The position numbers were made by a program, and so were the translations under genes. This document shows positions 13,301 through 56,663 of a stretch of DNA of 64,000 bases, in pieces. Position 1 is the stretch's first letter, and the number at the start of each line of letters is the position of its first letter. Origin of the DNA: Lingula anatina (taxonomy: Eukaryota; Animalia; Brachiopoda); the NCBI GenBank assembly GCA_051362555.1, contig CM120641.1, positions 12,772,001 through 12,836,000 of the forward strand. Reading direction: 5' to 3'. The notes below the pieces were generated by a model. It had not been told where the DNA came from. It searched no databases and saw only the letters and a list, made by a program, of their open reading frames with translations.

Positions 13301-14157
13301 TTGAAACAGGCAGATGACAAATATCACAGAGATCAGATAGAGGGCTACCCTGGAGATTTGGCTGATCTAGGAAACATGGTCAGACATGTAGGTTATGTGT
13401 TTTGTTAATTTCTTTGGCATTGAAATATTATGCAGAGCTTTTTATACACTAGTGTTAATGATTGTTACATTATAGCTAGAAATGTAGCTTGTCCTTACTT
13501 GTTTTTTTTTTTTTCTTGAGCATCTGTACCTTTTGAAATTATGATTTTTACAACACTACATGGTTGCTTTTGGATTTTTAAAATATTTTTATTAGTTGTT
13601 TTTCAGATTTCAAAGATGGTATCCAATAAAATAACATAAATTACATATAATCAGTAAAAATGTTTTATTGACTATTAATTCCAAAAATTACAAAACATTA
13701 GTACGATGCTGAATTGAAGATAAGAATGGGGAGAAAAAACATTAGTATGATGTTGAATTGAAGATGAGAATGGGGAGAAAAAAACAGTAAAAATAACTTG
13801 TTATTCTTTCAGGATGACTTCCAGATGTGGGATGCAGAGCCAGAGGGTCATGGTAAGGACAGACACATCTTCCTTTTCCCTGACAAACTGCTGATTACCA
13901 AGAAGAAAAAGCCAGCTGTAGAGGGAGAGCTCCCCACTTACATCTACAAGGGAATCATCAATGTAAGTGGTGGTAACTTTTTACTTTGTCTTCTTTATGT
14001 AACTTAAAATTGATTGGAATTGTTTGACCTCTCTAGGCATGCTCTTTTCTTTTTATTACTTAACTTACTTCTTTGAATACTTGGTATTTAAAACATCAGA
14101 CAATGGAATTGTGGTACAAAGGTCAAAGACTGAAAATAGATTTATGTGCCTGTCATA

Positions 14158-31100: not shown

Positions 31101-34100
31101 TCCAAATTATGAATCATGTGCAACTATTAGCAAAGTGTATTTTCATATTAAACACTTATTTTTGTATTGATCTACAGTAAATCTGTATGATATATACTAA
31201 GCTTGTCTAACATGAATAAGTAGTTTAGACATAGGGAATAGTGCTGTAGTATCTTATATTTCTATCTGTAATTAGTTGAATGAATACTAAATCTAACAAC
31301 TGATTCCAATTATGCATTGAATCAACATATCTTTATTATTGGTAAAGGAATTTTTACAATTCATTGGTGCTAATTTTGCATTGATTCAGCATTTCCATAA
31401 TATTTTTTGTACAGAAATATTTATTTTCATTCTGTTATCCATTGATTAATAAACCAAAACTAAACATAGCTTTATAAATTGAACTTATACTGTATAAATT
31501 AATAGATCTTTATTTGAAGTGTACAGTGAAATGTGTTATTTGCACTTTTTGAAAGTGTAAAATGAGTACATTTAGCAGTGACCAGAACAATATAAACAAA
31601 CTTTAACTTTAAAGCCACAGAAATGTGTTTTAACTCTCTGTTTCTTCTGTCCACATTCCCACTGGTTCTCCCATTCCTTACAGCTTCTCTCCCTGCTCAC
31701 ATGAGGGATGAGTACTCTCCAAGAAGCAGATCCTACTCTCCAACCACTGCTGGCAGATCCCCTCTGACTAAAATAACAGGTAGAAAGCTATAATATTCAG
31801 CTTTAGATGGGTAGCTCAATATTGAAATATAGGCTCTTAATATTGGACAGACTCATGCATTTAAAAGACTAATTTTTATCAATTTTCAGATAATCTTGAA
31901 CAGTGCCAAGAAGTTTGTTTCATTTTTTTGCTCAGAAGTTTGCACTATCAGTTTTATAGCTATTAAATTTGCAATATTTATAACTGAGAGAGGTGAATAG
32001 CCTGCTATATGATGGAGAGAGAAGGAGAGAGAGAGAGAAAGAAACATGTACAAAGTAACAATTTGAAAGAACTTCTTTTGGTGTGCTGTTATTATTCTTA
32101 TTTATATTCATTTTAGAGAGAGATCTTCCCCCACTCCCTCGTTCTCACTCACTGGATGCAAGACCCACTCAGACCTCTACTGAGAGACCTTATGCACCAT
32201 CAGGAAGATCCTACTCTAGCACTGAGAGATCTTACTCCCCTGTTGGCAGATCCTATACTCCTGTTGATAGATCCTACTCACCAGCTAGTCGATCTTACTC
32301 TCCAACTGGGAGATCTTACTCTCCAACTGGGAGATCTTACTCTCCAATCAGAAGTACCTATTCGCCAGCTGTCCGCTCCTACTCTCCCACCAATAGAACT
32401 AAAGGTTAGATGGGTTTGCTGTCAAATCTGTGATATTTTCATTTCTTTCACACCTACCACACTTAATTGTTACATTTAACACATTTTACTGAAATGCCAT
32501 GTGTACCACACTTCACTTTCACTGCAACTTTTGATTGTCACATCTACCGCAGTTTACTTTTACATTGTCATTTATACCACAGTTTACTGCCATGCTTAAT
32601 TCATCTTATCTATCATTTTTTCCAGTCTATGTTGCACTATTGACCATAATGATGATCATATTTTCTATGTTAAACTTTTCTGTGCTTTAACTCACTATTG
32701 TTTTACAGACTATGAAAGATCCTATACCCCATCCCCATTGGCTTCTGGCAGAAGAGGTAATTTCATCTGCTTGTTTCATGTGGAGCAGTTACATTTGCTT
32801 CTGACAGACTTGTATATGTACACTTAATTGTTGTGTTCTCTATACATTTTATCTTTTAGATTGTTAAGAAAGTGTAAATATAATATAGAGTGCTTGACTT
32901 GTTCTAGGGATATGTCATGGTATTTGACAAAAATGTCATATTTTATATATTCTGACGTCTTGGTACATTTTCATGTATTAGGTTCCATTAGGTTTTAGAT
33001 AATTTTTAACGTTCAAGTTTTAGTCATAGAATTTAATGCTCTCATGCTTTTTTTTTTTTGTAAAATTTATCACCGACTTATGGCACATACATGTGTTAAA
33101 ACAATGCAACTTTTCTGGATTTATTTAATTCCTTACTTTAGAGAGCACATCTCTGTCACCCACCACCTGCACATGCTCTGTTCTTTTCTATTATAGCAAG
33201 TTTACCTTCCGTTTCTCCATTGCCAACTATCAAGAAAACAGACAAATGTAAGATTACTGCACTTTCAGAAAAAATACATTGCTTAAGAATATGGTTTATG
33301 TATTTCTCGGCACTCATTATTTTATTTAATTTTTCATTACATATTTATTTTTGTACATTACGTTTAATTATTTTTTGACCTGTCATTTTGGAGCCATACA
33401 TCATTAATTCTAATGATGCATTCAGTTGCATTTTGATAAAGAAATAATTTTTGTTTTATTTATTTATTTATTTATTTATTGTCTTTGAATCAAATAAACT
33501 CTAGGAATTTTCACATCTTTTCCAAATGATGTATGACTGACATGTGTCATTTATTCCCCTTTCAGACTCCACCCACCACTACACCCCTCCCACCAAACCT
33601 CCCCTTACCACAGACAGACCATTCTCAGGTAATGTATCTGTTTGTTTGTTTTTTCAGTGAAACACTCACTTTTTGTTTAAGCATTTTCAGTAACACAATG
33701 AGCAAAGTTTGAGTCTTAACAGGAATTTTGATTCAGATATGTTATACATCAGGAACATTGGCTGTGAAATATGTTGATGTTATACTTTGTTTTCTTTTAT
33801 TCTGTCACTCAGAGATAACACTGACACATTGTACCCTGCTTTCAAACACAAAATTATTAATAAATTCAGATGACTAAAATTTTGGTTCAGCAGTGTTAGG
33901 AGGTATAAACTTGCATGTAGAAGCTTCAAAACTCTAAATGTCAAAGAACATGTTTATAATTCTCACTGCTTTTTGACTGATGAGATGAGTATCACTGTAT
34001 GTGCTGTTCATTGCTGCTATGTTAAAAAGGCTTCCATGTAATTTATACATGTATAATTCATGTTGAAACTAGCTGGTTTCAAACTTTATAATGCTCTTGC

Positions 34101-37771: not shown

Positions 37772-40118
37772 TGTATAATGGAAATCAATTTGAAACAATT
37801 TCTGTCTCTACCAGCCTGTATCCCCTATTTCACTGTGGACAACCCTACTCAGTATGCTGCAGAGACCAAAGCAGCTAAGATTATAGTGTACGTCCATGCC
37901 TACCCACCACCTAAGATCAGGTGGTACAAGGGCGAGGAGAAGCTCCCTCTTGGGGAACGATTCAACTCCTACTTGGCTCCAAATGGACTTTGTACCCTGG
38001 AGTTTAATAGGATGACCCCCAAGGATGTGGGAGACTATAAGATCTGGGCTCAGAATGACCTTGGTCAAGACTGCACGACCATTAGGTTGGAACTGGCAGG
38101 TAAGTTATGCTGGTACATTGGTTTTAATATGATAGTTTTAAAATGAAAAGTCTGTGTGCTACCTGTGGTTGTGTAAGTTAGTTTTAACATGACAGTACAG
38201 TTATTGTTAGGGACTTTGTGTGAGAGCTATAGTTTGAACATGATATGTAGACATTAAGACCCCATTTCCATAGATTTTAGATCGATCTATCCCTGTGGGG
38301 AGTCTCACTAGAATACTGTCAGCTTAGCCGGCTTAAGCGTCTGTCCCGCCTACTAAAAGCTATAAGGGGGTAATTAACTATGGTGCACACTTGGCTGACT
38401 GCAATTTAGCGTGAACCCCCAGGGAGTTAGGTCGATCTAAATCTTAATCTCTGGATCGATCTAAATCTCTGGGAATACACCCTTAGTAGATTTAATCATA
38501 TCTGCATGTACCAGTACTAGTACATAGTATATATCATGACAGACCTAAGTTTATGCACTGAATCAGTCAGAGAGTAGGAGTGTATCTTTATCATTGACAA
38601 ATTGTTATAAATGACCATGATACATTTTTAGTGTATGTTTGTACTGGGATACTTGTGAGTATGTGGAGAGGGGGGTGTTACCTTATAAGTGGTATTTTGC
38701 CAGTCACTCTTGTTACAAAACATACATTTTGATTAATTAAAGTCTAATATACATGTATATCTTTCAGATCCACCAACATTCTTAGAGCCAATTAAAGACA
38801 TTTTCATCCCAGTGCGTACGTCAGGACATCTGGAGTGCCGGGTCGACGGCATCCCGTATCCAGATGTAAAGTGGATGAAGGACTGGCGGGCACTGCCAGG
38901 ATCATACCGTGTCAGCATTCAGCAGGAGGGGCCAGACAAGTGGACGCTGAACATCAACAACGCCATAGACAAAGATGGCGGCCTGTACACTTGCGTGGCA
39001 GAGAACCTGGCAGGGAAAGTGTTCTGCTCTGCTAATGTGCATGTGGAAGGTAAGGAATATCTTGTCCAGTTTTGAAAAATGTCTGTTAAATACAAACATC
39101 TGACAATGTATAGGAAATATCAACTAATTCTTTTGGGATGGCACAGCATTAACTACTGTACCTTCATATACTGGTACTCATTTATGTATTTCTGTTTGTA
39201 GAAATGCTTTATTCAGATATTTTACATAAATTATTCATCAGTTATCATGTTATCATGGTATTTTTATTGTAATAAAAAGGGTTATTTATTTAAAATTCAA
39301 AATAGCATTTTGATCTGTTGATTGCTGTTCTTTTACTTTCAAGACCTGCCCGAACCTGTGGAAATTGAATTTAAACCTTTGTATCTTGAGGACCACTATC
39401 ATATTCTGGAAGAGCTGGGAAGGTAGATATTGACATTTGCTTTGAATTGGCTTTGAGACCCCAATAAAGAACTTTCTTGAGCCTTGTAGAATGCAAAGCC
39501 TTATGGCATATTACAAATGTACTAATACTTGGTTATCATAGATATTTTGAGTATTGCCAACTTCTCTGTGTATTTGCAATTGTGATAAGATATTTTTGTT
39601 AGCAGTTTTATGAAGCTTTTCTTTTGTTATATTGCTTATGAGCTCAGTTCATCTTGCAAATTAACTGATTTTGTAATTAACAATGTACTGTTCCATCTTA
39701 AATCCTAAAAGAAATGTGGTAATTACTCACAAACTTCAAGCACTATATGTATATTTTGATTTTGAATAAATGTTGCTCATTTTCAGTGTTTGTTGCAAGC
39801 AAAGGATATTAAAGTAAATCTTGCATGTAATTAAATCTTTCAGCAATGAATTGTATCATTTACTTCAGGGGCTCATGTGGTATTGTCAGAAGAGTAATAG
39901 AGCGGTGCACTGGTCACGAGTATGCTGCTAAATACCTCCAGGTGCGGGATGAAGATGACAAGCAGGACCTCCGCCCCATACTGGACACATGGAAGAAAGC
40001 AAATCACAGGCTTATAGCAAAACTGGTGGATGCCTACGAGACACCCAAGAGACTGGTTATGGTTTCTGACCTGTATCTTTTGACTTTGTTGTGAAAATGC
40101 AAATTGTTTGTTGAGGTT

Positions 40119-40172
<54 letters not shown>

Positions 40173-43100
40173 TAGTGAGTTACATATGCAGAATGATCTC
40201 GCAGAAGGGTTACTTACAAAGCTTCTATAATGACACTTTTCAGTCCACTGGTCACTCATAGTAGTGGGTTTAAGAGTAAACAGTCAAAATCAAAATTAAC
40301 AAGCCCAAAGAAATATAAAAATAATGAAAAAACCATCTAAATTAAGTGGTAAAATTTCAACCAGTTTAATCAGTTTAGTAACTAAGAAAAATAATTAATA
40401 GAGGATTAATAGAGGGCCATCCATGATATCTCTAGGGAGGCATCTACCTTATGAAATATATCAGGTGACTACATTGTCTAAAATGGAGGGTAGATGTTTT
40501 CATTCTGTTGATTATAGTTACTAAAAACAGATATTTGATCATCAAATCATCTAAAATTAAAAATAGGAGGTAAGGAGTGAGGTCACTGATCCTTATTTAA
40601 ATATTTTATTTCATTGTGTGGCAGATGTACTTGGAATTGAATTTGGTTTAGGTTCTTAGCCATTTCTCAATTAAGGTCAAAAGGGGGTAAAAAAATCATA
40701 TTTTTAGAAAGAAAAATCCAGTATCTTTGGAAATGACTGGCTATAGGCCAGTAATTACCAGACATGTATGTGATAAAGAACAGATTATTGGTGCAATTCA
40801 ACATGAATGCTTTATGTATGAAGTGGTATTTATATTACATAAGGGATCTTCATGTGGTTTACTACATCTCTCAGTATAGCACCAGGTTTGATTTATAACT
40901 TAATTGACTTTGCTGCTGTGTCTATCAAATCTGACCCCCTTCCTTTGAAAGTTTTAGACAGCATTCCCACAGATTTTTAGATCGATCTATCCCTGTGGGG
41001 AGTCTCACTAGATTGCTGTCAGCTTAGCTGGCTTTTAATGTCTGTCCCGCCTAGTAAAAGCTGTAAGGGGGTTATTAACTTTCGTGCATGCTCGACTGAC
41101 AGCAATTTACCATGAACCACCAGGGAGTTAGGTCGATCTAGATGGATCGATCTAAATCTGTGGGAACCCAGTCTAACACTCTAGTCTGTCACAGGAATGA
41201 GTACAGATAAATTTCAATTACTTCTACCTGAGCAATATGTCATTGGTTTCTGAAAAATGAAAATAATGGTTATAAATAAATAATAATGATTTGATAAGAT
41301 GAATAAATTAGTGTAATGAGACAAAGAAAAATGAATCAGACTCAAATAAACTACACTTTGCTTTGTTTTACCGTTTTGATTTAGAATATTACCTGCTTTA
41401 GCAAGGATATGTAAACACTGCTTTATCACGTAATGAGTTTGTCTAACTCCTAACCTCTCATTGATATTGTATGACCATGTGCTTAAATTATATTTATACT
41501 GTAACCCCGTCAACACCTTAACACACACACACATACATGTCATGGGTGTTTGTAAGAAAGAATACAAGTTATTTAAATCGTTAGTGTAGTGATGTACTCT
41601 TTCTAGCATAATAAGTTGCATAATTATCCTGCTCTCTTCAATGCATTATTAATGCCATTGTTGATTGTAATACTCTCAAAATAAAAGCCCTGTTTTTTAA
41701 CAAGCATCACACGGATAACAGAAACTATAAGCCAGCGCACTGACAACTGAACGCGAATGCCGTTTTAGTCAATGACAATATTGCAGATTAGATGATTTGA
41801 GTGGGTGCACATAATATAAAGTATTTGTTTTCGTGTTAACAGGCAAAACAGTTGATGAAATCAGTGATGATAATGAAACGATATTAATATTAATCTGCGA
41901 CGTTCTGTGCACAGCTTTGACGTGTAATGCGCATGGTATATATTTGATTCATGGATCTGGGATAGGTGACAGTAATATGAGAAGAGAATATTTACAGCGA
42001 TTGTCCTCGTCACGTCACGTGTCAATATTTAAAGAAGCGTCCAAGGCTTATTATATTTGATTAAAAATCCTATCGTTGACCTTACTCCAAATGTAAGGTG
42101 TATTTTTAGACTGTGTCTACATGTAGGCCTATACTTCTGCTTGGAATTGGTGTCGTCTGCTCCACTGTGTATAGATTTGGGACATACGCATATTTGTGTA
42201 GAAGTTGTAAAGACGTCATAACGTCAACGCGTCTATAAATACACAGGCGACTGGAGCACCTTATTCAAACTGAAGTTGTCCTTATATTCTAATCACGATC
42301 AAAATGCACATTTGGCTAATGTAAATGGAATAGTTGAATGGCACAAACAAAAACACATCCGAGGAGCCTGGTGTGAAATAACTAACAGGACATTGTGATT
42401 TTGAACATGTTGCTCCTTGACGTCGTATCCCAGAGCCACTGGAGGTGAACTCTTTGACAAGGTCGTCCACGAGGACAACCTCAACGAGGCTCGTGCAGCG
42501 TTCTACATTCAACAGCTCTTGGAGGCGCTGCAGCACCTTCAGGACAACAACGTGCTACACCTCGACTTAAAGGTAGGTGGACATGATGGGTATTTGGGAG
42601 TTAGGGGGAAAGTTGTGTGTCGTGTTTTTGAAAGTTCTGCACACTTTGGCCTATATTGGCATAGATTTATGATCTTGTGTGAACTATCGCTGTTGAAACA
42701 GCATCTACTTAATTTTTTTGTATATTATTGCTGTTGATATCATACATGGTAAACAGGGTATCAATAGCATTCTTGTTCACTGCTCCACGTCGAGGTATTT
42801 CATATAAGAGCGACCATCGTTTAAGAATTTTACAATCGCATCCCACGTTTAAAAGACTGGCATTCTTTCCGACCGGAGTGAATTGGCCCATGATTAATTT
42901 TCTGTTATAAATGCAGTCACGATATTTTTTGCATTTAGATTGGAAGAAAGGGTCATAGAATATTAAACCAGTATGATCCCCGCGATTCCATTGAAACGTG
43001 ATTGCAATATCCAGCAGCACTTTTATTTCTTCCAAAATATACCTTATTATGTGTGTATAAAAAGACATTATCAAATTTTTTATTTGAGCCCCGTCTGCCA

Positions 43101-46100
43101 AAGTGATGCTCGAACGGACACATTATCAAGTCCCAATGAATTAACTTATTCGTTACGTGAGCTCGAGTTGGTGTAATAATACTTTGCTTGCTATAAGTGA
43201 AACATTTTCAAGCGCTGGAGTGGAGGGGTAGCAGGTATAGGCACCTGTTGCTACAGTACTTCAGATAAGTACAGGTGTGGCAGGTGTAGACTGTGCGTCA
43301 ACGTCTGTGAGGTGTGGGTACATATATTCGTGTATTAGCGAGACGTGCTTCGTATTTGTTGATAAATTGTTAATTATGTGGCAGTCTTACTTAAATGCAG
43401 AATTTTTAAAACGGGTGACTGACACTTAATTCGCGTGTAGAGAGGTTCAGGGGGTCAGTTTTTTAAATATTCATAACATTTACTTAACGCTCATGCCCAT
43501 AAAATACGGATGCTTTAATGGTAAAATATTTTTTTTATTTTTAAAAGTACTTCATTAAAACTGTCAGGGTCACTTAGACTTTTTTCTGCTGTTATCCTAA
43601 ACCCCTTTAATTGCTCATGATATCAGATACACTTCCCACTTTAACAATTGGGAAATTTGCTGGCTGTAAGGGAGAATTTCGAGTACATAGGGCACTGTGG
43701 TTGCGATATGCCCTGAAGGAGGTCATGCGACAGCATTATAAAAAGTAGTTTAATGCTTAATTTCACACAGTTTAGGTGCAATGCGCTCCGTTGTTTAGAG
43801 CGCCTAAATAATGGTCAACCTTTTGGTCAGGTCAAGCGAACGATCACTAAAATGTTGCAAACTTGTAATATGGAATACGTTTCCCAAACTTTTCTTGATG
43901 TATTTCATATTTTTACTCATAAAGTCGAATTTGCACAGAAATTTTCGTTTGTCTCTTTTTTAAGTGTATATGAGCTTAGGAGGCGGATTTGCGATGCAGT
44001 CTTAAAAACCAACGATTGTCCTTTAGTTCCCTTGCATTTGAATTAGGGAAATCCAGATTATATTCTGTATCGAAGATGCCTTAGATAAATGGCAACCTTG
44101 CAACACCGGTCTCAGCTGACGTGTAGAAATATAATGTGGCTATTCAGTGACACAAACTAGGCCGATTCACAGACTAAAGTTGTCCTGTATCAAGAGGACG
44201 AACATCGTCTGGTCGTAGTATGTAGTACAGTATAATATACATGTAGCCCATCGTCGCCCAGCATTTTGGTCTGTTTCACACGTTCATGTCTGTCGTTACC
44301 CAAGTGTGTACCTCTAGGCTACTGAGGATTTTTTTCAAGAGCTGCTGCTGTTCATTGTTGTATTTCGCAAAAAGCACTCTGTTAAAGGGATAATAACTCT
44401 TCGTTCCGGCCAAAAAATGAATTCCTGGAGTAAACAACAATTTTCCCATACTTACCAATGGTTAATGAATCCATTTTTACATTCAAAGTAAGTCCCTGGT
44501 TTTTTTCTAAAAAGTTTGTTTTTTTGTTAAAATCTCTTAAGAGATTTTAACAGAGCATAGCCATCAATGGAGGTCACGTGGTCTAAAGACAAGCTCAGAT
44601 ATCAGAATAATAGCTATAACTGTCATTTTTGTGGTAAAACATAACATATGATATTTCTATGAGTTATTCACAATGTTTTTATTGTGAAATATAGATCTCA
44701 TACGAAGAGTTATTATCCCTTTAATGTACTGGTTAAAGTTACATCAAGTAATCCCCATACCCAGCTCACGGGACAAGATAACATGCCTTCCCACCTGCAA
44801 ATACATTTAAAAACTTAGCGCTTGTTTCTGAAAGGATCAGAAGACCATAGATGTTGACAGATGCGTGCCTGCGTCAAAATAAATGGCAGTTTTTATAATA
44901 CTTGCGGAAAACATGTAAGGAGAAGAGTGAAATTAATCTGGAAATCGCGGTTCAGTGCGCGTAATTTTCATCACCAATGTGAAAGCTTCCTTTCATGTAA
45001 AGCATGATGATAAAGGCTATAACACGGCGTCAGCTTGGGTCTTTATGAAATATAATCTTGTATTGGAAAAGTAGGATACGAGGTTGATGACAATTATGGA
45101 TCCTTTTAAGAACGCTTGTTGGGGGATAAAGCAGACATTCTGTGCCCAAATTACCTCAAATCATTGGGCAGGTGGGACTTCCCGATACCTGGCCAAATAA
45201 TACAGACCCCTATGTGTTCTTATTTCAATAACGCAGACCAGTTTTTATATCACAATTTGTTTATTTTCAGCCGGAGAACATTCTCCTGTCTCGACACGGA
45301 TTAAACGACATCAAATTGATCGACTTCGGCAACTCTCGTATCTACGACCCCAAGAAGAAGCTGCTGGTGAAATACGGGAACCCGGAGTTCGTAGCGCCAG
45401 AGGTCGTGCGCGGAGACCCCGTGGGACAGGGGACGGACTTGTGGGGTGTCGGAGTTGTGGCCTACGTTCTGTAAGTGCTGTGGGCTTCCACGAAGATTTG
45501 TCTACGTCGATGTATATAATACAGATTAGCCTTTGTATATTATGATGATTGTTACTGGTTTTAACTGTGTTGTATTCAATTCTTAATAAGAATGAAAGCT
45601 GCTGCCCTTTTTGTGTTTGATTTAGCAGTAGGTATAATTATTAAGCCCTTTGCTATCAATATATGAATTTCTAAACACAAAAACACGATGCGACAGCACC
45701 AAATTCCAAGTATAGAATATATAGTAGCGATTGGGGCATTTCGAACAGTTGTCGACAAGAAATCGCACAATAAAACGACAGCGTCTTTAATCTGACCACA
45801 CCACCGACTGTATTCATTTCATAGAATACGTTCCACTGGACCGCAGTTATCTTTTAGACTTGAAAGTTTGGGTGACCACATTACAGCAGACGGGACACGA
45901 TTCCACAGTGATGGATGTAAAGATATTGTATTATATAAGTTTCTACAGCGCCTGTGTGCACTAAAAAGTAGAAAGTGTAAAATTGTCCTTACAGTGGAAA
46001 GCTGTCATTATAGTAGAAAGTGTGCGGTCACCAAGTTACAGTCGTAGGTGTGGTCAGTTAGAGTCCTCAACACTTGACCACCCAGCCTTGACCTGTCGAC

Positions 46101-49100
46101 ACGTTAGTCATTAACTTTATTGTACTATGGTGAGACGCAGTGCACTGATCTTGTCTTTACTCGTTTACTGCTAACACAAAGAAATCCGAAGAAATTGCAG
46201 AACCATAGGCGTGAGAGAGGTTGAACGAAACTCTCTGCCACTCTAATTGGGCTCATAGCTCGCCACCTACATATAACGATGTATGACAAGTAATTAATAT
46301 TGATATATAGGTGAACCGCGTGTTATCGTTTTAGGCTTAGCGGCGTGTCACCCTTCTTGGGCAAGACTAACCGTGAAACACTGGAGAAGGTCAAAGAAGG
46401 CACCTGGACATTTGATCCCGAGGGGTTTGCAGGTGTCTCGGAAAAAGCCAAACAGTTCATCGGCGATCTGTTGAATCCTGATGAAAGGTAAGTTAGAATT
46501 ATTTCTATTGGCATAGGGACCGTTGCATACTTGGTGAAATGGGGTTGTATTTTGTCTTGATATCTAGTGGGAGGACTATCATATCTACCAAACCAAATGT
46601 TTTCGGAGGTTAGCTGACAATAAAACTCCAGCTGATTATTTCCGCGATTGTGAAATCTTAGTTGTAATAGTGTACTGTTCCCAATGAGGGTTACTGATGA
46701 CTGGGTGGGTATGGAAAATATGGCCACGAGTAAGTTGTTTAATATGTAGTTGATATTGTTACCGTTTCGTGGTGGACCACGAGATGTTGATCTAGCAGAC
46801 AGTGGGCCTCTCAGTATTAAAATGTTACATTAACAGCGACCGTGACTTACTCTGACGACGACTGTGTTAATTTAGTGGTTTCAGTGGTGGTCAGTTAGCT
46901 CTACTAATCATTTTTGTGTTCAGTTTAGTAATGTATACCATTAACTTGTACATTATCTTGCATTTGAGCAAGTTGATTCAAGTGCCCGTTTCCGCGTTTT
47001 TATTTGGGTCAATATTTCACTTTGCTTCCTATTCGCACGGTATATATACACAATTATGACTCGTTCATTAAAAATGTGCTTTTTAGTTGGGATTCTATCT
47101 CATATAGGGCCTACTTGTGTACGAGAATACGCTACCACTCGTTTTATTTTATGAACGTATTGTACAAATACAGACACACACTACATTGTAAATATTACTT
47201 GTATGTCATGCAATGCTCATGATTAATGCACTCATTGTGTTTTATGATCTCCCTGTATAATGTCAAATGGGGTTCATTTGGTTTTATGTGATTATGCTAG
47301 GTTGTTTTGAATAAAAAAATCTAAGGAATACATACTTTGAATTTAAATATCAAACTCAAACTTTATCGGAACCAAGTAGAAAAGATAAATATTACCCCCC
47401 TCCCAAACTTATAATAATAAACGTGAAATCTGTAAATATTGTCAACAGATATTTTTATCGTTTTTCGTGATTTTTGTAATAAAAGTTGATATTCTGGCGT
47501 AACCCTGAAGTTAGGAGCTTTGGCAGTAAGTCGCATCTACCACCAAGCATGTTTATCAGCCATCCGTGAAAAAAGTCGTAGAGAGCAGAGGAGAGTTTGA
47601 AATTTACGGTGTTAGTCAGTCGTTGTGCATGGTGTATCATTTATCGAGGCGAGATAAACTCAACTGTTCAAACTGACAAACATTGCTCTGACAAATATTG
47701 TAAACCACATAAAATAATGTGCACATTAAGCTTTTAGCTCAATTTTCTAAACATTAAACGAAAACTAGCTGCGAACCGTTTCATCATTTCACAATTTATG
47801 TGCAGCGTAAATAAGGTAAATTTGTCTTTGCTTGTTATGTCGAATTTTGAACGGATCCCAACTTTGAACTGGACTGAATGAACATGCTCACAATCAAAAC
47901 TGTAAATTAGCTGCTAAATGATTCTAACAATCAGCGTCGACTTCTGTTTCAGCAAGCGCCCCACACTGTCCCAGTGCCTGAAACACCCTTGGATCAAGCT
48001 GGCGGACGTGGATGCTCCCGGGACGAGATTACCCACGGAGAAACTGCGAGAGTTTGTGTCTAGGAGAAAGTGGCAGGTGATTGTTGCACATATTTTGCTA
48101 AAACATTCTTTTTGACCTACATTATGTGGAAGATGGTTTTGAAATGCTAGTGTACGTACCCGCACCCTTTACAAGGGCCCACCAAAGTGTTTGATGCGTC
48201 ATGCTTGCTATTAATGTGCTTCACATTATGCTAAACATGGACAAAATTACGAATTTTGTTGTCCAAGTACTAAGGCGCAAATTGTTACGATCCGTTGCAG
48301 TCAGATTTTTGTGACACAACAATTAATAATTGCAGTGTCACGTCATTTTGTACATTCCAGTGGTTATTTTTTAGAGATCAGTAACGCGGTTTTACATGGC
48401 CCACTTTTAGCATTCAGTGTTGCCTTTGTGGTCTTTTCAGTGCTTGATGGCACTTCCTTGTCCGTTTTAACGTGCCTAATAATAGACGACACTCGAGTGT
48501 TAATGCATGAAACTTCCTTTGTCTCGACAAAAACGCGCTGAACACTTTGATGCTATTGTTCTTTAGTGGATTTCTTTTGATGTGTAGTAAATCTGGTATT
48601 TCATTTGTTTTTTAATGAAGATCCACTAACATGAAAAGTAAGTTTCGCAATATAAGGTTCATAGGTTCTATTCACACCACCAGTGCCTTCTGGTGTCAGG
48701 TCATCTACGTCTACGCTCCTCTCATGGCAAGATACATGTGCAGGTATTCGTGAAACGAGTTGCAATTTACAAGCAGTTAGCAACACAGAACTTCAGGTCT
48801 TGGTTTTTATTTGTGTTTTTACATTTTCACTGTAAAAATAGAAATATTAAAACGAATTTAGTTGTCCACTTGTCGGGTTGTGTAATTATAGTTCTCTTTT
48901 ACTTTGCTTTTAATTCTATTGCATTTTTCGTTCTAGCGCACTCTGGGAGCGGTGAAATTCACAGTGAAACTGAAAACAATAGAAGACCTCTTGGCAGAAC
49001 CAGACGAGGAGATGCCAGCACCCCCTGGTGACGATTTCTCATCTGGCGAGGAAGACGCTTGGTACGAGTGGTACACACGTTATCAAGGCGATGACACAAA

Positions 49101-52100
49101 ACTTTTACCTACTGTCGACTCCATGCCCGTGAGGCTGCGCGAATATCGCCGAGAACAAGGCGAGAAGTCGGATATAGACCTCCCGATACCCGAAGGGAAG
49201 GAATCCGACCCCGAATTAGTCCGAAAGAAGACGATGAAAGCACGCCAGCACCTCGCTGATGTTGAAGAAGAGGATGCTGCGAGACGCGCCCTGGCCGGTG
49301 CCGCAGCCAAAGTCGACGATCAGATCTCGCAGATGAAAGCCAAGAAACGAGAACAGCAGCTTCGCATGGTGGAGGAAGGTAAAACGCGTCAGGGTTTTGG
49401 TGATGATGACGTCGACTTGCATGCCGATTGTGACGTTAGCATGGTGCCAGCTGATGCGCTGACAAATACTGTTGAAAGAAACAATTTGCAATTATCCCCT
49501 GCCGCACCACTTGAAAAATGTATGATTTGCACTCAACCTCATCTTAATAGCACTTTAGTATCACCACAGACACTTCCCGCAATGTCAGCATGCAATTCAA
49601 GTAGGGACAAGTGTAGTCCACGCATGCGTGTTGATCCCCTAAGCATCGCTTCAACTAACTTCTTTAGTTTGGAATCTAAAGCCTACACGGAGACAGCCGA
49701 GTGTACGCATGTGATGTTTTATACGGAAGGAACAGAAAGACTTTGCGAAGCTCCACCACCCTCTGACAAATCAAATAACAATAACGTCGCTGAAGGTGAC
49801 GGAAACAAAGAGCCGGAATTGCCCGAGTTCCAATGTGTTGTTGATAATGAGAACGACAATACGACTGCGGCAACAGTTCGGCAACGAAAAACAGGAGTTG
49901 CCTCGATGCAAACACCTAAATCTGATACAGATCTTGCTAAATTTCGATTGCCCAAAATGATCAGTGTTGTGGACACAGTCATGGACAAAATGAAGGCACC
50001 ATCAACGGATGCTCGCGCAGTGAACAACAATAATAATTCTCCGCAAGGGAGTGCCGAAGAGAAAGGTCCAAATCTTCTCCAGCTACCTACCAACGGGTTC
50101 CAACCGGAACTCCACCAGTCGAGTTCGTGCCCGACCTTACAGGAAGGTGACGTCACCAGCGGTGGAGTGAGAAGAGTAAGGCGGAAAAGTGGAACCTTCA
50201 GAAAATACAGCACACCAAATCCGGAACTGTTCTCAGAGGACTCTGAGGAATTACTAGATAAACACCTCGACTGTCTGCTCGAGACTAACCCCATCCACCA
50301 CGCCCAGCTTTCCATACCCGTGCACGAAAAAGTGAAGCAAGATTATTACTACACTCTTATATTCATCGTGTCTTTGCTGTTTGGCGTGGGGTTCGGCTGT
50401 CTGTGTATATTTGTGTACAAACATTACCTCAAAAGTTGACGCTTATCAGAGAACAGTTTTGTACCTCTTGATTTGAACGCATGCTTTAAAACTGTTTATT
50501 TGCTTCATCGTGGTGTTCGCTTCCCAGTCATAATCATTTTAACTTCGTTCATACCAACTAAAAACCACCATCTACCAAAGATCGACTTTTTTCCAAATTA
50601 TCAATCTATATAGGTGCCATCATGGCATCCGTTGCAGAGCCTTTTTTGGGTGCATGAACTGTGATGACTGGAGAAGCGCGTTAATGCGCTCCTTGATTGA
50701 AATTCTCAATTGAAGTGACGTTATTTCATAGTTGTATATTCATTCTTTACGTATAAACATATGCAATTCTGTTTTTGTGTCTGTTTCACGATTTTGGTTT
50801 TGCCGAATCAATAATTTCCTACATAATTTTTCTATTATTCTGGCATTTAAAAGTTTTGTGAACGAGTTGTATTATACATAAAGAAAAGGGAAAGAAATCT
50901 CCCCGAAAAGGCATTTTTATTGTTTGAAAAGCAAAAAAGGGTGTAAAGTGTGTAAAGTAAGGGAATATAAGTGAAAACTGGTGTAAGTAGTGTTCATGTA
51001 ATGTCTTTGCAAGAAAAAAAAAGACCTCAATGACACAGTAAGATTTTTCCTTACCATCTCGCTTTAATTTGTCGTTTTTCGTTGGTAGACGTGAACAAAT
51101 TTTTACAAAGAAGCTGTTTAAATGACTGATAAAACTTGACTGTATTCGCTTTTGAAAAGAAACAATCGAAACAATTTTTTCTGAAATCAAAATAAAATAG
51201 TGGCTATATTTATCATAAAACAAAACTATTTTTTCCAAAAAAAAAAAAATCAAAATAAACATTTACTGTTTTGAAGCTCAACAATTTTACGTTTTGACCA
51301 GAGATTGTGAGGTCGAGATCTGACAAGCTAAATGAAGCTTTTTGATACTTTGTTCATGATTCTAAAATAGTATCAGATATCTGGAGAAGCATTGTTCTCT
51401 GGCATATCCGTTCAAGTATAGCTGCAAATAGAGCATGTGTTTGAAGTTAAGTCGCCAACTGGGCTGTTAGTGCTTTTGAACAGAAAGCATAAATAGATTA
51501 CCATGTGTTTGAAATTGATCCGTTTTTATTTTAAAAAGCCTATTCTACTATATATGGTAAATTGGTAAATGGTTTTACAGTCCCTGATCAATATATAACG
51601 TTTAACAATAATTTAAAATATTGTGGACGAAATAATGTATATCAAAGTATTCTCTTTTTCTCATCTGTTTACATTTCGTAAAACTTTATTCAGGGTTCCC
51701 ACCTATTTTCCGAGAGAAAATCAAAGACCGTGCGTACAACGTGGGCGAACCCGTAACTCTCAGATGTCACGCGCTCGCCAGCCCACCGCCAACCATCTCC
51801 TGGTACAGGAACGACCAAATGATCACCAGTTCAGACGACACCAGTGGCGCCAGCAACCGCGTGCGGGTCTCGCAATCAGAGGACGGCCACTTAACCTTGA
51901 CCTTGCTGAACACGTTACCCAATGACTCGGGAGTGTACAAGTGCGTTGCCAGGAACAAACTTGGAACCGCCACGTGCAGGGCGAGGCTGATGGTCGGAGG
52001 TAAGGTGAATGCTTTTGATAGCATTGAAATTCAAAGTTAAAACTTCTTATCTTTTTTAGGTTACTTAATATGTCATCTTTGTATTGTACTTTAATTTTTA

Positions 52101-55100
52101 AAAAATCATGTTGTTTTGCATTGCTTTTTTTAAATTAAAAATTTATTATACATAATATTATTTAGGCCTAATGTTAAAAATTTGCCCCTTTCACTTTATT
52201 TTGTTGTATGTTTACATGCGTTTATGAAATTTGGGCCTTTATTTCTTATAGCCTATAGTTTTTAGTTTCTTACTTTCTTAATGTTGTATTTCAAATAGAA
52301 TTTCTTTCAGATAATGTAAGTTCGTGATTTGTTTTACATAAATTAAGTTCAATTTGCTTTTCCGTAAAACTTGTTTATTAGGCTTTTTGTTACTCTTATA
52401 CAATCAGTGCTTTCTTACCTTCTTTCCCTTTGTTGTTACTGTAACGCACATAAAACTCATTTTACTGTGTTGATAATTCGTCGCTCATTCCTTATGTTGT
52501 TAATACAACATCTCACTTATTCCATTGTACTAAGTCTTATTGTACTAAGTCTTTACTTATTTCCAATATTGTTGCTGTAACTCGTGTATTAGTTCTACCT
52601 AGCTTTGTATTTCTAATGCGAACGTTTCATTATATCTCCTTGTTCATTTTTTCTTAATGTTTATATATCTTATCCTACGGTGTAATTAACAGACGCTATG
52701 TTTCAGGTGTTAGTCCGACTGCTCTCCTCAACCAGGCGCTGGCTAGTCATGGCGATGGCAGGAGTATTTAGAAACATGTTGCTAAGCGCTTTATTTACTG
52801 TCTTTGTTGTCTAGGTGACGGCACAGCAACAGTGTCAGAATCACAAAGCACAGAATCTCTACCCGATCTACCGATACTATCCACACTGCGTGGTAAATAT
52901 TTTAGGGGTGTTTGCGTAATGGCTCTAGTATGACGCTTGTCCTTCGGGATTTATCCCTAAAAATTAAGTAGCCTAATTTTGGTCATTTTGTGTATGTAAA
53001 GGACATTACGCAGAAAGAGCAGGTCTGTCCCTCAATCTAAAGAATTTGCGTTTAAGCAGCATCAGAACAACTTATTTGACGCAAACTGCTGCAAGCTAGA
53101 AGTGCTCCACGGGTGTCCATCTTTTTGGTATGGGCATACAGCATACGAGATATTGTTATTGAATAAAACGCTTGGGACTGATCTGCTTTGTTATTGCGCA
53201 AACAAATTTGATGATGCCATTACACAAACACACCAACCTCGTTTTTTAGATCTGACGTGTTATTAAAACACCCTTGAGTGGGCTGAACTCAAGAATGTGT
53301 TTCTGACCTTGTAAACACAAAGAGTCATGTAGCCATGTGTGCAACGATTGTGCTTCTCAGATGCCTTATTTGCATTTGTTCTGTGTGTCATATTTTCTTT
53401 TAAGTTCTTTTTGACAGCACGTGCCCTCTCTATTTCTCCTTTTTACTTGCATTACCGTGTAAAGTTATATCTTCTCAAAAAATAAAACTAAAAAATATTT
53501 TGATTTTAAGGTGTTAACTAAGAACGATGCATGTCACCTTGATAACATAAATGATATGGATTTAGTAAGATAAAAAGGAACCCACTGTATTTCTATTTTG
53601 TGTTATTTTAATTTTGTTGGGGCATGAACATGAACAGAAATACAAAAAAAAACGCTTTACTATGGCTATAACCGTCTGGCTGACAATATCTTTTTCACCT
53701 CAACAGTAACCTTACAATTACTGAACCTGAGTTGTTAAACTTGTGATGAAAAAATTATACTTAAAAAGGCAATTTGTTGTCTTTCACCACATTTATTCGG
53801 TTTATTACTCCTTCGTTGTCCTGAGCTCCCCCCCCCCCCCCCAACTCGAACACACACAGTTCCATTGCCCTGCACATCTGCGTCACCTATCGAACCGCCG
53901 AAATATTTCATGTACTCCAACAGTTTGGTTTTTTAATTCACCAATCCAATTTCTGGCACCACCGACTATTAAGACGATTTGCAATATTTCCTAGATTTAT
54001 CAGCCCCCCATTGCACAATAGGAAAACCACCCTTATGTCCAAATATTCATATTTCAGTCTTAAAACGACAAGACAAGCAGACTGCAGTAGAAACAATGCC
54101 CAGTTTCCAACCGACAGGACATGTGGTTTGGTGTTTTCATCACTGCTTTTTCGAAGATATTTCCTTGCTGATTTTATTAACATTGCTCGGGCGTTGCTTT
54201 TGAGCTTCAGTGCGGCACTTCTCATTTAGTACTTACTTTACACGTTAAACGAAGCTTTACACGTACTTCTGACATTTCAGATGTCCCAGATCGTCCAGGT
54301 CGTCCCGCGGTGTCCCAGGTGTCTGGGACGGAGGTTTTCCTCATTTGGGACGCTCCCAAATTTGACGGGAATACGCATATCATTGCCTATAAAGTTGACT
54401 ACAGACGTGAAGGTGGGTGATGTTCAGAACTTCTTTTGGTTGTTGGGGGAAAACCAAGAGGAAGCGCGTATGCCTTCGTTAACATATAATTGCTCTGAAT
54501 ATTGTAAATATTTAGAAATATGAAGAAAATATCTGTAGATGCAATTAAAACGTCACTCAACAATCTTAACTTATTTCTTAATTAAAAAGATAGTCAAAAA
54601 CGAGACAGAAGTGTTTGACTTTGTTCAGGATACTAGCCGTATAAATGAGGTAATTAAATTAAGATCATTCGAATCAACAATGCCATTAAAGACAGAACAC
54701 TTCACCAATGTCAAGCCAAAAGGAGTTTGCTCTGAAACAGTTATAGGGTTATTTTAATCCACCAATATACCACGAATAATTTATAACTCCTATTTCGTCA
54801 ACGCAACGTCTTTAATCTCACAGGAGAGGAGCGCTGGACGACGGCGTCGTACACCATTGACGAGTGCGCCCTGGTCACAGATTTGAGCCCGGAAACAGAA
54901 TACCGCTTTCGGGTATCTTGTCTGAACAGATTTGGGGTCAGCCCGTACAGCTGGTCATCGCAGGAAGTGACCACGAAGTCGGCAGGTAAACGCCACTGTG
55001 TTTATTCTTTCCCAGAGACCAATGTGTAAATGTGTAGATGGTTCCTGTTTCACCATAGACCTTAAAACCGAACGTTGATCTAAAATGTTAGGAATGATTT

Positions 55101-56615
55101 TTAGTCTACTTTTAAGCAAGCCAAATCAGAAGTAATCCAACGAAATGCAAACGCGTATGTTTTCGTTGAAATGTATTATAGTTAGGTTGTAGCATTTTTG
55201 CGAAAGGTGCGCCAATAAAATTTTACTAATTTTTTAACTAGAAAGCTGAAATACGAAAAATTAATTATTTTTCATTCATTACAAAAGCCTTCTAGCACGT
55301 CATAGACATTGCTACATTTAAGAATAGGCATTTTTATTGCTGTTCAAAACAAACCACACTCACCTGCCTTTTCTTAAACCCGAACAAAGTTGAATGATTA
55401 TTGAACATCTCTAATATACCACATTGTATATCAAGGTGAAGCGCCTCTGAGTAGAGAGAAAATGCGTCAGTGCAAGAAGATTGACATTCAGGGTGATGCT
55501 GACCTGTCCCCTGAGCTGCGTGACTTCGAGTCTGCTCGGGAGAGAGGAGAGGTGCCCCTGATTGAACGGAACCCAGCTGAGGACTACGAGTTTGCTGGGG
55601 AATTATGGAGGTTTGTGACTAATGTTAAGGCCTGTAAAGTTAAAGAAGACAGTGAAAATGTTATTGACAAGGAATTAAATGAATTGGTTGTTTTTAAAAC
55701 AAATCGCATTTATTCTGAGTGATACAGACGCATAATATGGCTTGAGAATCAATACCCTGTGAAACATTGCTTAAGGTTTTTTAATTTATGAAAAGCGAAT
55801 TGATATCTTTTTTTTTTTTAATTTTGTAGAGGCAATTTCTCCGTGGTTCGAAGCTGCGGCAGGAAAGACATGCCGGCGACTCTTGCCGCCAAAATAATTG
55901 CTTTCACACCAAGCAACCGCAGCCAGGTTCTCCACGAGTTCGAAATTCTGAAGACGCTGAATCAGGAGCGAATTGTGAGACTCCACGAAGCCTTCACCAC
56001 GCCCGACCATCTCATCCTCATCATGGACAGGCTGTACGGAGAAAATATCCTGCAGTTCCTGAGCTACAAGAATAAGTATACAGAGGAGACCGTGGCTAAA
56101 GTCATGAGACAGGTAAGTAGTTAAGATGATTAAAATGCGTTTTAAAGACTTTTTAAGAGTCTTCTTAAAAGGGCAGTTAGAAGCACAGGCAAAATGCTGT
56201 TATGGTCTAGACCTACTAACTTTTTTCGTCAAGTTTTTTTAGATTAACTTCATTCACTGATAGGCCTATGCTTTAAGATTTTTTTTACATTTTCTATGTT
56301 TTGAGGAATCATTTTGCATTTCTGATGGAATTTTTGGGTGTATCAGCTGATGATCAATTTCTATATAATAACATCATTGAACTTCGGTATATTTAAGGTT
56401 ATCGATGCTGTGCAATACCTCCACCATCAAGGCGTCGTGCATTTGAACATACAGCCAGACAACGTGATGATGGCGAGCAGACGTCGACTTGACGTCAGGC
56501 TCGGTGATTTTGGGTGCGCGCGCATCATAACTGACCCCATGGGAGAAAAGATGACACAAGTTGGAGCGCCAGAGTTCATGAGTAAGATGGTTGTGGAAAG
56601 TTTAATATATATAAG

Positions 56616-56663
<48 letters not shown>

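Follow-up and report, generated by a model that had tools for sequence, protein, structure and literature searches.

Could an invertebrate obscurin gene supply its own membrane anchor? This question is raised by a locus of Lingula anatina within the 64,000-nucleotide stretch of DNA that we analyzed (hereafter, the window), where a first-pass annotation had proposed that a splice donor between two kinase domains is read through into a tail-anchored form of obscurin. All features described below lie on the forward (+) strand. By domain architecture, the host gene is of the UNC-89/obscurin type, as that annotation had claimed. Pfam matches above the cut-off form an SH3-DH-PH triplet (SH3, 11401-11814; RhoGEF, 11951-12211; PH, 13768-14004), and the C-terminal part consists of kinase 1 (Pkinase pieces, 39831-45471), a linker without a domain, Ig (I-set, 51636-52037), FN3 (fn3, 54787-55026; E = 8.7e-5, just under the cut-off) and kinase 2 (Pkinase, 55822-56688), which is the order found in UNC-89/obscurin (bioRxiv 2020.04.03.023374). 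When a kinase-2 exon was compared with PDB sequences, the best matches were to DAPK1, and obscurin was found at E = 2.4e-6. The inter-kinase segments of UNC-89, obscurin and SPEG are 647-742 residues long, of low complexity and free of helices (bioRxiv 2020.04.03.023374), a trait that describes the family rather than strictly defining it; here, the spliced inter-kinase segment comprises ~175 residues with a predicted 55-residue helix and is not a long, helix-free stretch.

The inter-kinase exon common to both forms (48937-49378; 147 codons) encodes an acidic stretch, a conserved tryptophan motif and the predicted 55-residue helix, and is followed by a phase-1 donor (49379-49380); the kinase-2 form is spliced at this donor, and the anchored form continues through it. 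Downstream, the acceptor of the next exon opens at 51694, and the Ig, FN3 and kinase-2 exons left out by the anchored form (51694-58446) match Pfam I-set, fn3 and Pkinase. Read joints 48076→48937 and 49378→51694 were both present, and the frame remained open for 353-354 codons past the donor, so that the splice to the next Ig exon and the 354-codon extension proposed earlier are borne out. The whole frame (48937-50439) is open over 500 codons and ranks second in length among 119 listed stop-to-stop frames. The probability of meeting no stop in 352 codons was 4e-9 with the local base composition and 6e-12 with that of introns, in line with the earlier view that a chance origin is very unlikely, and the five other frames contain 9-33 stops. 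The read-through coding extension (49379-50439; 353 codons) comprises a predicted disordered linker, short conserved motifs, including a basic serine motif at aa 415-418, and a juxtamembrane helix. Neither the 500-codon frame nor the related sequences P0001 and P0002 described below had a Pfam match. A synonymous-codon test placed the open frame clearly best in none of four held-out true exons, except for one marginal case.

The frame ends in a predicted tail anchor (50353-50439), composed of a 22-residue hydrophobic helix, a 6-residue tail and the stop codon. The 22-mer (aa 473-494) has a GRAVY value of 2.43, and the tail contains two lysines and no proline, which agrees with the hydrophobic helix of about 22 aa and the short basic tail originally noted. 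The highest 19-residue hydropathy window reached 2.72, compared with 0.70 for the runner-up elsewhere in the 500-aa frame; none of 20000 residue shuffles attained 2.72, and a C-terminal window of that hydropathy was found in 7 of the other 1170 ORFs of at least 30 aa in the window. As in tail-anchored proteins, the only hydrophobic helix lies at the very C-terminal end and is followed by a short tail, and hydropathy, used here in place of a dedicated predictor, indicated no signal peptide or second membrane helix upstream. Both single-sequence structure models placed helices at the N-terminus, showed extended disorder and predicted a helix at the C-terminus with confidence; their mean pLDDT values of 47 and 45 denote low confidence overall, and the helix predicted at 460-499 had pLDDT values of 89-97 over aa 471-500. 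KASH proteins have, behind the membrane helix, a luminal peptide with a proline-rich end motif, and the 6-residue, proline-free tail without a Pfam match does not have this form. In mammals, ER targeting is favored by a hydrophobic helix and a low tail charge (PMC5450235). The tail charge of +2 is nearer to the mitochondrial than to the ER mean of that study.

We compared the frame with P0001, from a distant relative, and P0002, both of which we infer to belong to an obscurin gene. In P0001, the read-through frame is open over its full length and the terminal helix is preserved, with 31% identity over query residues 6-495 (E = 5.5e-23) and 28% over the extension alone (E = 2e-17). The extension scored 181 against P0001, compared with 72 for the best of 1000 shuffles, and 146 compared with 78 when the helix was removed. 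The P0001 helix has a hydropathy window of 2.42 (next best window, 0.66) and is followed by 10 residues. Within the inter-kinase exon, identities amounted to 60 of 119 aligned residues for P0001 and 40 of 142 for P0002. Significant similarity of the extension was restricted to P0001, since 82 of 1000 shuffles scored as high against P0002, whose helix is weaker (1.87) and has 57 residues behind it. The extension contains 24 listed variant sites (10 synonymous and 14 missense, with no stop or indel), giving a pN/pS of 0.42 (P = 0.025). Word-index searches for homologues were empty for the extension against proteins of 876-2500 aa, the whole frame against 275-875 aa and the core against 876-2500 aa; metagenome scans gave no match, and in the ESM Atlas the tail had no usable match and core scores were all <0.8. 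A transposon or retrocopied fragment was rejected, given the lack of a Pfam match, the absence of a second copy within the window and of the read pile-up seen on true repeats, and the intact frame of P0001; the earlier concern that the ORF might be mobile or disrupted is thereby answered as far as the window and this distant relative go.

RNA reads were taken from 5 of 9 species-labelled runs (X1, X2, X3, X4 and X7) belonging to three studies; X1-X3 come from one study and are the runs in which the anchored form dominates. The extension was covered in all five runs, and the stranded runs placed these reads on the sense strand. The joint 48076→48937 was supported by 7, 3, 5, 349 and 76 reads in X1, X2, X3, X4 and X7, respectively. 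The kinase-2 joint 49378→51694 had 1, 0, 323 and 104 reads in X1, X2, X4 and X7, and reads crossing 49386 numbered 9, 6, 2 and 1. The corresponding ratios of extension to core depth were 1.07, 2.7, 0.005 and 0.026. Depth per 1e9 letters was nearly constant for the extension (4.1, 3.0, 1.8 and 2.3) and ranged from 1.1 to 389 for the core; that is, the anchored form is low and steady between runs, whereas the kinase-2 form varies ~350-fold. Anchored-form depths are low (5-10-fold), and mean extension depth in the kinase-2-rich runs was 2.2 (X4) and 3.8 (X7). Because reads are absent from the introns on the 5' side (zero depth over 48182-48886 in four of four runs) and the signal lies on one strand, it does not derive from pre-mRNA or DNA. 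Full intron retention was rejected because no reads were found in 51336-51690 at 90% likeness. We likewise rejected a simple switch of the muscle transcript between tissues, because the extension level is independent of the level of that transcript. These results indicate that a transcribed read-through form replaces Ig, FN3 and kinase 2 with a predicted anchor-like end, as had been suggested.

Read depth was undiminished across the helix and the stop codon, at which the G+C fraction falls from 0.42-0.57 to ~0.33. In the 3' untranslated part (50440-51001), depth fades from ~50580 and is zero beyond 51001, so that of the coverage expected over 49379-51300, the extension and its junction with 48076 were recovered and the distal part was not. 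In 51191-51259, next to an A-rich run, two AATAAA words (at 51191 and 51254, as annotated) are candidate poly(A) signals by sequence; no reads cover either word (51222-51270 was masked as a repeat).

We further examined where this transcript begins. The reads give an exon chain of 46335-46487, 47953-48076 and 48937-50439. The two kinase-1 exons that carry the catalytic loop and DFG (Pfam Pkinase; 42434-45470, with exons at 42434-42572 and 45271-45470) were at intron-background depth with no joints listed in X1-X3, and the latter exon had a depth of at most 0.4-0.6-fold, compared with 8-16-fold on the next exon. With these exons missing in X1-X3, an intact kinase 1 cannot be translated from the transcript. 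The late kinase-1 exon 46335-46487 is the 5'-most one seen where the anchored form dominates (depth ~16-, 8- and 13-fold in X1, X2 and X3), and is joined to the last kinase-1 exon, 47953-48076, by 18, 8 and 8 reads (46487→47953). No joint into 46335 was listed in X1-X3 over the stretch from 40200 on, compared with 34 and 15 reads for the next two joints; the table of loose read ends around 46335 was swamped by repeats. The 5' edge of this exon tapers in X1 (depth ≤3.4 versus 15.7, P = 0.0015), weakly in X3 (P = 0.06) and not in X2 (P = 0.97). A TATA-like word at 46304-46310, ~30 nt before the exon, is a weak candidate promoter element. The first in-frame ATG of the short transcript (49012-49014), a putative start codon preceded by two short upstream ORFs whose context is poor, leaves 475 aa to the stop. 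The dominant anchored transcript in X1-X3 therefore probably starts near 46335 and encodes a product of ~475 residues.

Our preferred reading, to which we assign a probability of roughly 0.57, is that this obscurin/UNC-89 gene makes a low-level read-through transcript, likely started within kinase 1, for a short, kinase-less, tail-anchored protein. An internal promoter near 46335 would drive this second transcript, the donor at 49378 would be read through into the conserved coding extension, and translation from the ATG at 49012 would yield a kinase-less protein of 475 aa. Its C-terminal helix is predicted to be inserted post-translationally, most likely into the ER/SR, being very hydrophobic with a low tail charge. 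The motif and long helix of the inter-kinase segment, which obscurin normally displays at the sarcomere, would then be held at a membrane on a flexible linker of ~300 residues. The protein may thus be a spacer or an adaptor, and phosphorylation of the conserved basic serine motif would be a likely switch.

On a wider proposal, which we consider doubtful, the obscurin locus of this animal lineage would encode its own membrane anchor: a conserved alternative last exon of ancient origin would supply a tail-anchored inter-kinase protein, and in some muscles the giant scaffold or kinase 1 would carry this exon as well. If the muscle giant were joined to the anchor, it would form a direct M-line-to-SR tether doing the job of small ankyrin-1 in vertebrates. 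The first-pass annotation had used the anchor to fasten the M-line protein or kinase 1 directly to the SR/ER or mitochondria. We consider it unlikely that a giant or kinase-1-bearing muscle form ends in this way, because in the runs dominated by the anchored form (X1-X3) the catalytic exons of kinase 1 have background depth and no joints. Moreover, the extension stays at 1.8-4.1 per 1e9 letters over the full range of the core and reaches 0.5% of core depth in X4. The frame nevertheless permits such a product, extension reads also occur in the kinase-2-rich runs X4 and X7, and, according to an excerpt of PMC12812942, UNC-89 and fly obscurin do not have the ankyrin-binding site, so that another membrane link is conceivable.

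Read placement began at 40200, and a joint into 46335 from farther upstream could therefore not be listed. This leaves room for a long anchored form that keeps SH3-RhoGEF-PH, Ig and FN3 and skips the three middle exons of kinase 1, which would yield a RhoGEF scaffold tethered to the membrane and carrying an inactive kinase. Loss of 39869-45470 would shorten the coding sequence by 543 bases without shifting the frame, and the gene part at 5-41 kb is CpG-depleted, which is typical of broadly expressed invertebrate gene bodies. We regard this form as rather improbable, however, as it requires near-complete skipping of three exons, the taper of depth at 46335 in X1 is more easily explained by a start than by a splice, and the nearest upstream donor (40073) resembles the minor-spliceosome type and is an unlikely partner of the 46335 acceptor.

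It is quite improbable that the extension, although coding, has no working anchor at its end, or that it mainly acts to lengthen the inter-kinase spring and is spliced from a later donor back to the Ig exon. Such a spring would suit the shortness of the spliced inter-kinase segment, the two phase-1 donor-like sites inside the extension (49795 and 50146) and some Ig-exon depth in X1 and X2 despite 1 and 0 junction reads; against it, no joints from inside the extension were listed in four of four runs, depth runs on through the helix and stop, and the helix is kept in P0001. Finally, a functionless product of a leaky donor, a retained intron or a mobile or retrocopied fragment would accord with the low abundance, the missense share (14/24) and the lack of a Pfam family, but is highly improbable given the empty neighboring introns, the unread stretch 51336-51690, the single copy in the window without pile-up and, above all, the frame and motifs kept at 28% identity in P0001, which largely refute it.

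Our literature search found no membrane-spanning product of obscurin, UNC-89 or SPEG, although supplementary isoform tables might hold one, and the word 'transmembrane' is absent from the main text of two obscurin reviews (PMC12812942 and PMC7957886). Vertebrate obscurin is tied to the SR through an ankyrin-binding site that invertebrate obscurins do not have (PMC12812942, excerpt), and the latter may reach internal membranes by another route. The short, kinase-less anchored protein favored here, whose frame and terminal helix are conserved in P0001, would be a concrete candidate for an invertebrate obscurin-membrane link. The inter-kinase segment would then also stand out as a portable module for binding, beyond its role as a spring.

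Junctophilins and similar ER/SR tethers consist of a helical part, a long disordered linker and a C-terminal membrane helix; the likeness is one of layout only, with no MORN or other Pfam match here. Solo/Trio8 likewise ends in a hydrophobic anchor. This short membrane-associated isoform of a related RhoGEF-kinase giant retains the N-terminal SEC14, spectrin and GEF1 parts, unlike the form described here (PMC4536496 and PMC3547891, excerpts). In DMPK, a muscle kinase gene of an unrelated kinase family, alternative splicing produces C-terminal membrane anchors (forms A-D) or a soluble end, and the forms keep the kinase, whereas the dominant anchored transcript here is without catalytic exons (PMC2778554, excerpt). 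Telokin/KRP, a non-catalytic C-terminal product of the MLCK-family gene MYLK, is made from an intronic promoter and is thus a precedent for an internal start, but is a soluble 17-kDa protein identical to the C-terminus of the kinase, with no new exon or anchor (PMC4530952, excerpt). Within the same gene family, unc-89 of C. elegans uses three promoters, and UNC-89-C and UNC-89-D begin with a partial kinase 1 followed by inter-kinase, Ig, Fn and kinase 2, paralleling the start that we infer inside kinase 1; these isoforms keep Ig-Fn3-kinase 2 and reside at M-lines, whereas the present form drops those domains and ends in a hydrophobic helix (PMC4865318, excerpt). The alternative last exon, the internal start and the tail anchor each have a precedent in other kinase genes. 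The vertebrate obscurin locus is linked to the SR membrane through small ankyrin-1 (sAnk1.5), a partner from another gene, whereas the predicted anchor here lies within the obscurin gene itself (PMC12812942, excerpt).

Pfam matches placed SH3, RhoGEF and PH pieces at 11.4–14.0 kb, followed by Ig and FN3 exons, and, in the 3′ part, kinase pieces at 39.8–45.5 kb, Ig at 51.7 kb, FN3 at 54.8 kb and a second kinase at 55.8–56.7 kb. By its predicted domains, the host gene is of the UNC-89/obscurin type, whose layout is given in excerpts from bioRxiv 2020.04.03.023374 and PMC4865318; this domain order bears out the first-pass annotation of the gene as obscurin. Two SH3-like exons lie 5′ of RhoGEF, at 6794–6939 (by eye only) and 11451–11650 (Pfam match). 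A 552-codon exon (23435–25093) encodes an FN3 domain and, after it, numerous basic serine repeats; at 32206–32346 a tandem repeat of 21 nt encodes a Ser-Pro-rich motif. The serine-repeat part and the Ser-Pro repeat are likely phosphorylation-rich linkers. In the N-lobe exon of kinase 1 (39869–40072) the usual helix C glutamate is missing by eye, and the catalytic loop and DFG downstream appear intact; in kinase 2 the catalytic loop is altered, with asparagine replacing aspartate. Between the Ig and FN3 exons, a small optional exon (~52815–52892) was entered by 295 reads and skipped to the FN3 exon by 81 in RNA run X4 (121 and 10 in run X7; loose ends).

The forward strand from 48937 to 50439 contains 500 codons without a stop. 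The donor after 49378 is used as proposed, its junction with the acceptor of the next Ig exon at 51694 being carried by 323 reads in X4 and 104 in X7, both rich in this kinase-2 form. No stop interrupts the 353 codons that follow the donor in this frame (354 in the first-pass annotation); at local base composition the chance of such an open extension (49379–50439) is 4e-9, and the other five frames hold 9–33 stops over it. G+C is 0.42–0.57 until the stop codon and ~0.33 immediately 3′. The terminal helix of ~22 residues with a short basic tail was likewise recovered: of the last 28 residues, 22 form a hydrophobic stretch (GRAVY 2.43) and the other 6 a tail that includes 2 lysines. An equally hydrophobic window appeared in 0 of 20000 residue shuffles of the frame, and 7 of 1170 other ORFs of at least 30 aa in the window end in one. 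The AATAAA words reported at 51191 and 51254 on the forward strand are present as candidate poly(A) signals.

We mapped reads from five of nine listed RNA runs (~6% of each of X1–X4, 25% of X7). The extension was covered in all five, as expected of a transcribed read-through, almost entirely on the sense strand in stranded runs; the upstream intron 48182–48886 had zero depth in four of four runs. The extension/core depth ratio was 1.07 (X1), 2.7 (X2), 0.005 (X4) and 0.026 (X7), the core being the shared exon upstream of the donor. Because extension depth per 1e9 letters was steady across runs (4.1, 3.0, 1.8, 2.3) while core depth varied from 1.1 to 389, the anchored form behaves like an independent transcript at a low, constant level rather than a set proportion of the kinase-2 form. 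Depth passes through the helix and the stop, declines at ~50.6–51.0 kb and is zero further 3′, as read with 51222–51270 omitted and over a highly polymorphic untranslated part. Full intron retention had no support, with zero reads over 51336–51690 at 90% likeness in three of three runs.

The chain upstream was joined from 46487 to 47953 by 18, 8 and 8 reads in X1–X3, respectively, and from 48076 to 48937, a junction anticipated earlier, by 7, 3 and 5. Among the joints listed in these runs (at least 3 reads from 2 starts), none entered 46335 and none linked the kinase-1 exons 42434–42572 and 45271–45470. Depth over the DFG-bearing kinase-1 exon was at most 0.4–0.6-fold, as in the adjoining introns, and that of the next exon was 8–16-fold. 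Where the anchored form dominates (X1–X3), the transcript lacks the kinase-1 catalytic loop and DFG. These runs, all of one study, give no support to the proposal that the anchor tethers the giant M-line protein or kinase 1, which we consider unlikely.

The simplest reading of the 5′ end is an internal start at the 46335 exon. Its 5′ edge showed a depth taper in X1 (≤3.4 versus 15.7, P = 0.0015) and a weak one in X3 (P = 0.06). On the forward strand, the exon is preceded at a distance of 30 nt by a TATA-like word. In X2 the edge had no taper (P = 0.97), and the exon may instead be spliced from one upstream of 40200; the loose ends listed for the 5′ side were dominated by two repeats (486 further rows). 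Such splicing might yield a long form that keeps RhoGEF and skips the kinase, which seems quite unlikely. With an internal start, the first in-frame ATG (49012, forward strand) would give 475 residues, and two short upstream ORFs precede it.

The donor of intron 40073–42433 and a branch-like word immediately 5′ of its acceptor resemble the minor (U12) spliceosome consensus, and this intron could be a slow step between two gene halves. CpG observed/expected was 0.0–0.47 over 5–41 kb and 0.6–1.07 outside, with a sharp border within the same intron (5001–41000 versus 41001–64000). The border suggests, from composition, that the upstream part (SH3-RhoGEF-PH-Ig-FN3) is a broadly expressed unit, perhaps terminating at this point. 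Such a mosaic CpG pattern, together with the gene's architecture, is probably that of an invertebrate. Introns over 41352–45959 had low sense depth (0–2-fold) in X1–X3, possibly the trailing end of an upstream transcript, and introns further 3′ were empty. At 42210–42245, ~190 nt 5′ of the kinase-1 exon at 42434, CRE-like words followed by a TATA-like word form a second candidate internal promoter, inactive in X1–X3. Dispersed repeats at 40962–41174 and 44382–44724 reached hundreds-fold depth on both strands, with like copies near 6340–6560 and 38270–38480; that at 40962–41174 has inverted ends by eye, resembling a miniature transposon.

Word-index searches, metagenome scans and Atlas gave no usable homologues, and HMMER, run exhaustively over 1.84 billion representatives, matched two proteins, both Logan singletons and compared as protein sequences. 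The first, P0001 (477 aa), from a distant relative that appears to share the read-through, aligned with residues 6–495 (31% identity, E 5.5e-23), runs past the same Glu-Glu-Gly donor position and stays open for 336 further residues. Its C-terminal end has just one hydrophobic window (2.42), followed by 10 residues. The extension alone matched it at 28% identity (E 2e-17), with a score of 181, where 1000 shuffles reached no more than 72; without the last 35 residues the score was 146, and shuffles did not exceed 78. Kept blocks include a two-cysteine stretch (aa 254–273), an acidic stretch (near 305–310), a basic serine motif (415–418) and tyrosines preceding the helix. The second, P0002 (531 aa), is significantly alike in the core and has an open extension of similar length. 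Its extension is not significantly like that of Lingula, for which 82 of 1000 shuffles scored at least equally well (against P0001, 4 of 1000 did), and its hydrophobic segment is weaker (1.87), with 57 residues after it. Within the species, the extension differs at at least 24 sites; the 24 listed comprise 10 synonymous and 14 missense differences, with no stops or indels, and pN/pS (0.42, P = 0.025) lends modest support to coding constraint. A coding extension whose end is not anchored fits the terminus of P0001 poorly and is very unlikely. Noise, for which the low depth might speak, is hardly credible for a sense-transcribed, conserved frame.

We observed the exon chain, sense transcription, loss of the kinase-1 catalytic exons in X1–X3, and a conserved frame with its terminal helix. 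In the proposed mechanism, an internal promoter would start a short transcript, a start codon on it would open a short protein, and the tail would be inserted into its target membrane. By mammalian rules on helix hydrophobicity and tail charge, as excerpted from PMC5450235, the very hydrophobic helix and weakly basic tail lean towards the ER; the tail charge of +2 may be compatible with mitochondria too. Single-sequence AlphaFold models of the 500-aa frame and P0001, of low overall confidence (mean pLDDT 47 and 45), both predicted a long helix ending the shared exon (residues 92–146 and 99–146, respectively), then ~250 residues of disorder and a short helix, and gave the helix at the C-terminus with confidence. 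We give a probability of roughly 0.57 to the product being a kinase-less, ER/SR-anchored adaptor whose flexible arm presents the inter-kinase module of obscurin.

Among the literature matches listed, mostly titles and abstract openings, there was no transmembrane or tail-anchored obscurin isoform, and the word 'transmembrane' is absent from the main texts of PMC12812942 and PMC7957886. We judge the anchored form to be a real and conserved variant among the products of a known gene family, and apparently one not yet described. According to excerpts of the respective papers, the UNC-89-C/D isoforms open with part of kinase 1 (PMC4865318), an intronic promoter yields telokin (PMC4530952), alternative splicing of DMPK selects tail anchors (PMC2778554), and the short Trio isoform Solo/Trio8 associates with membranes (PMC4536496, PMC3547891).
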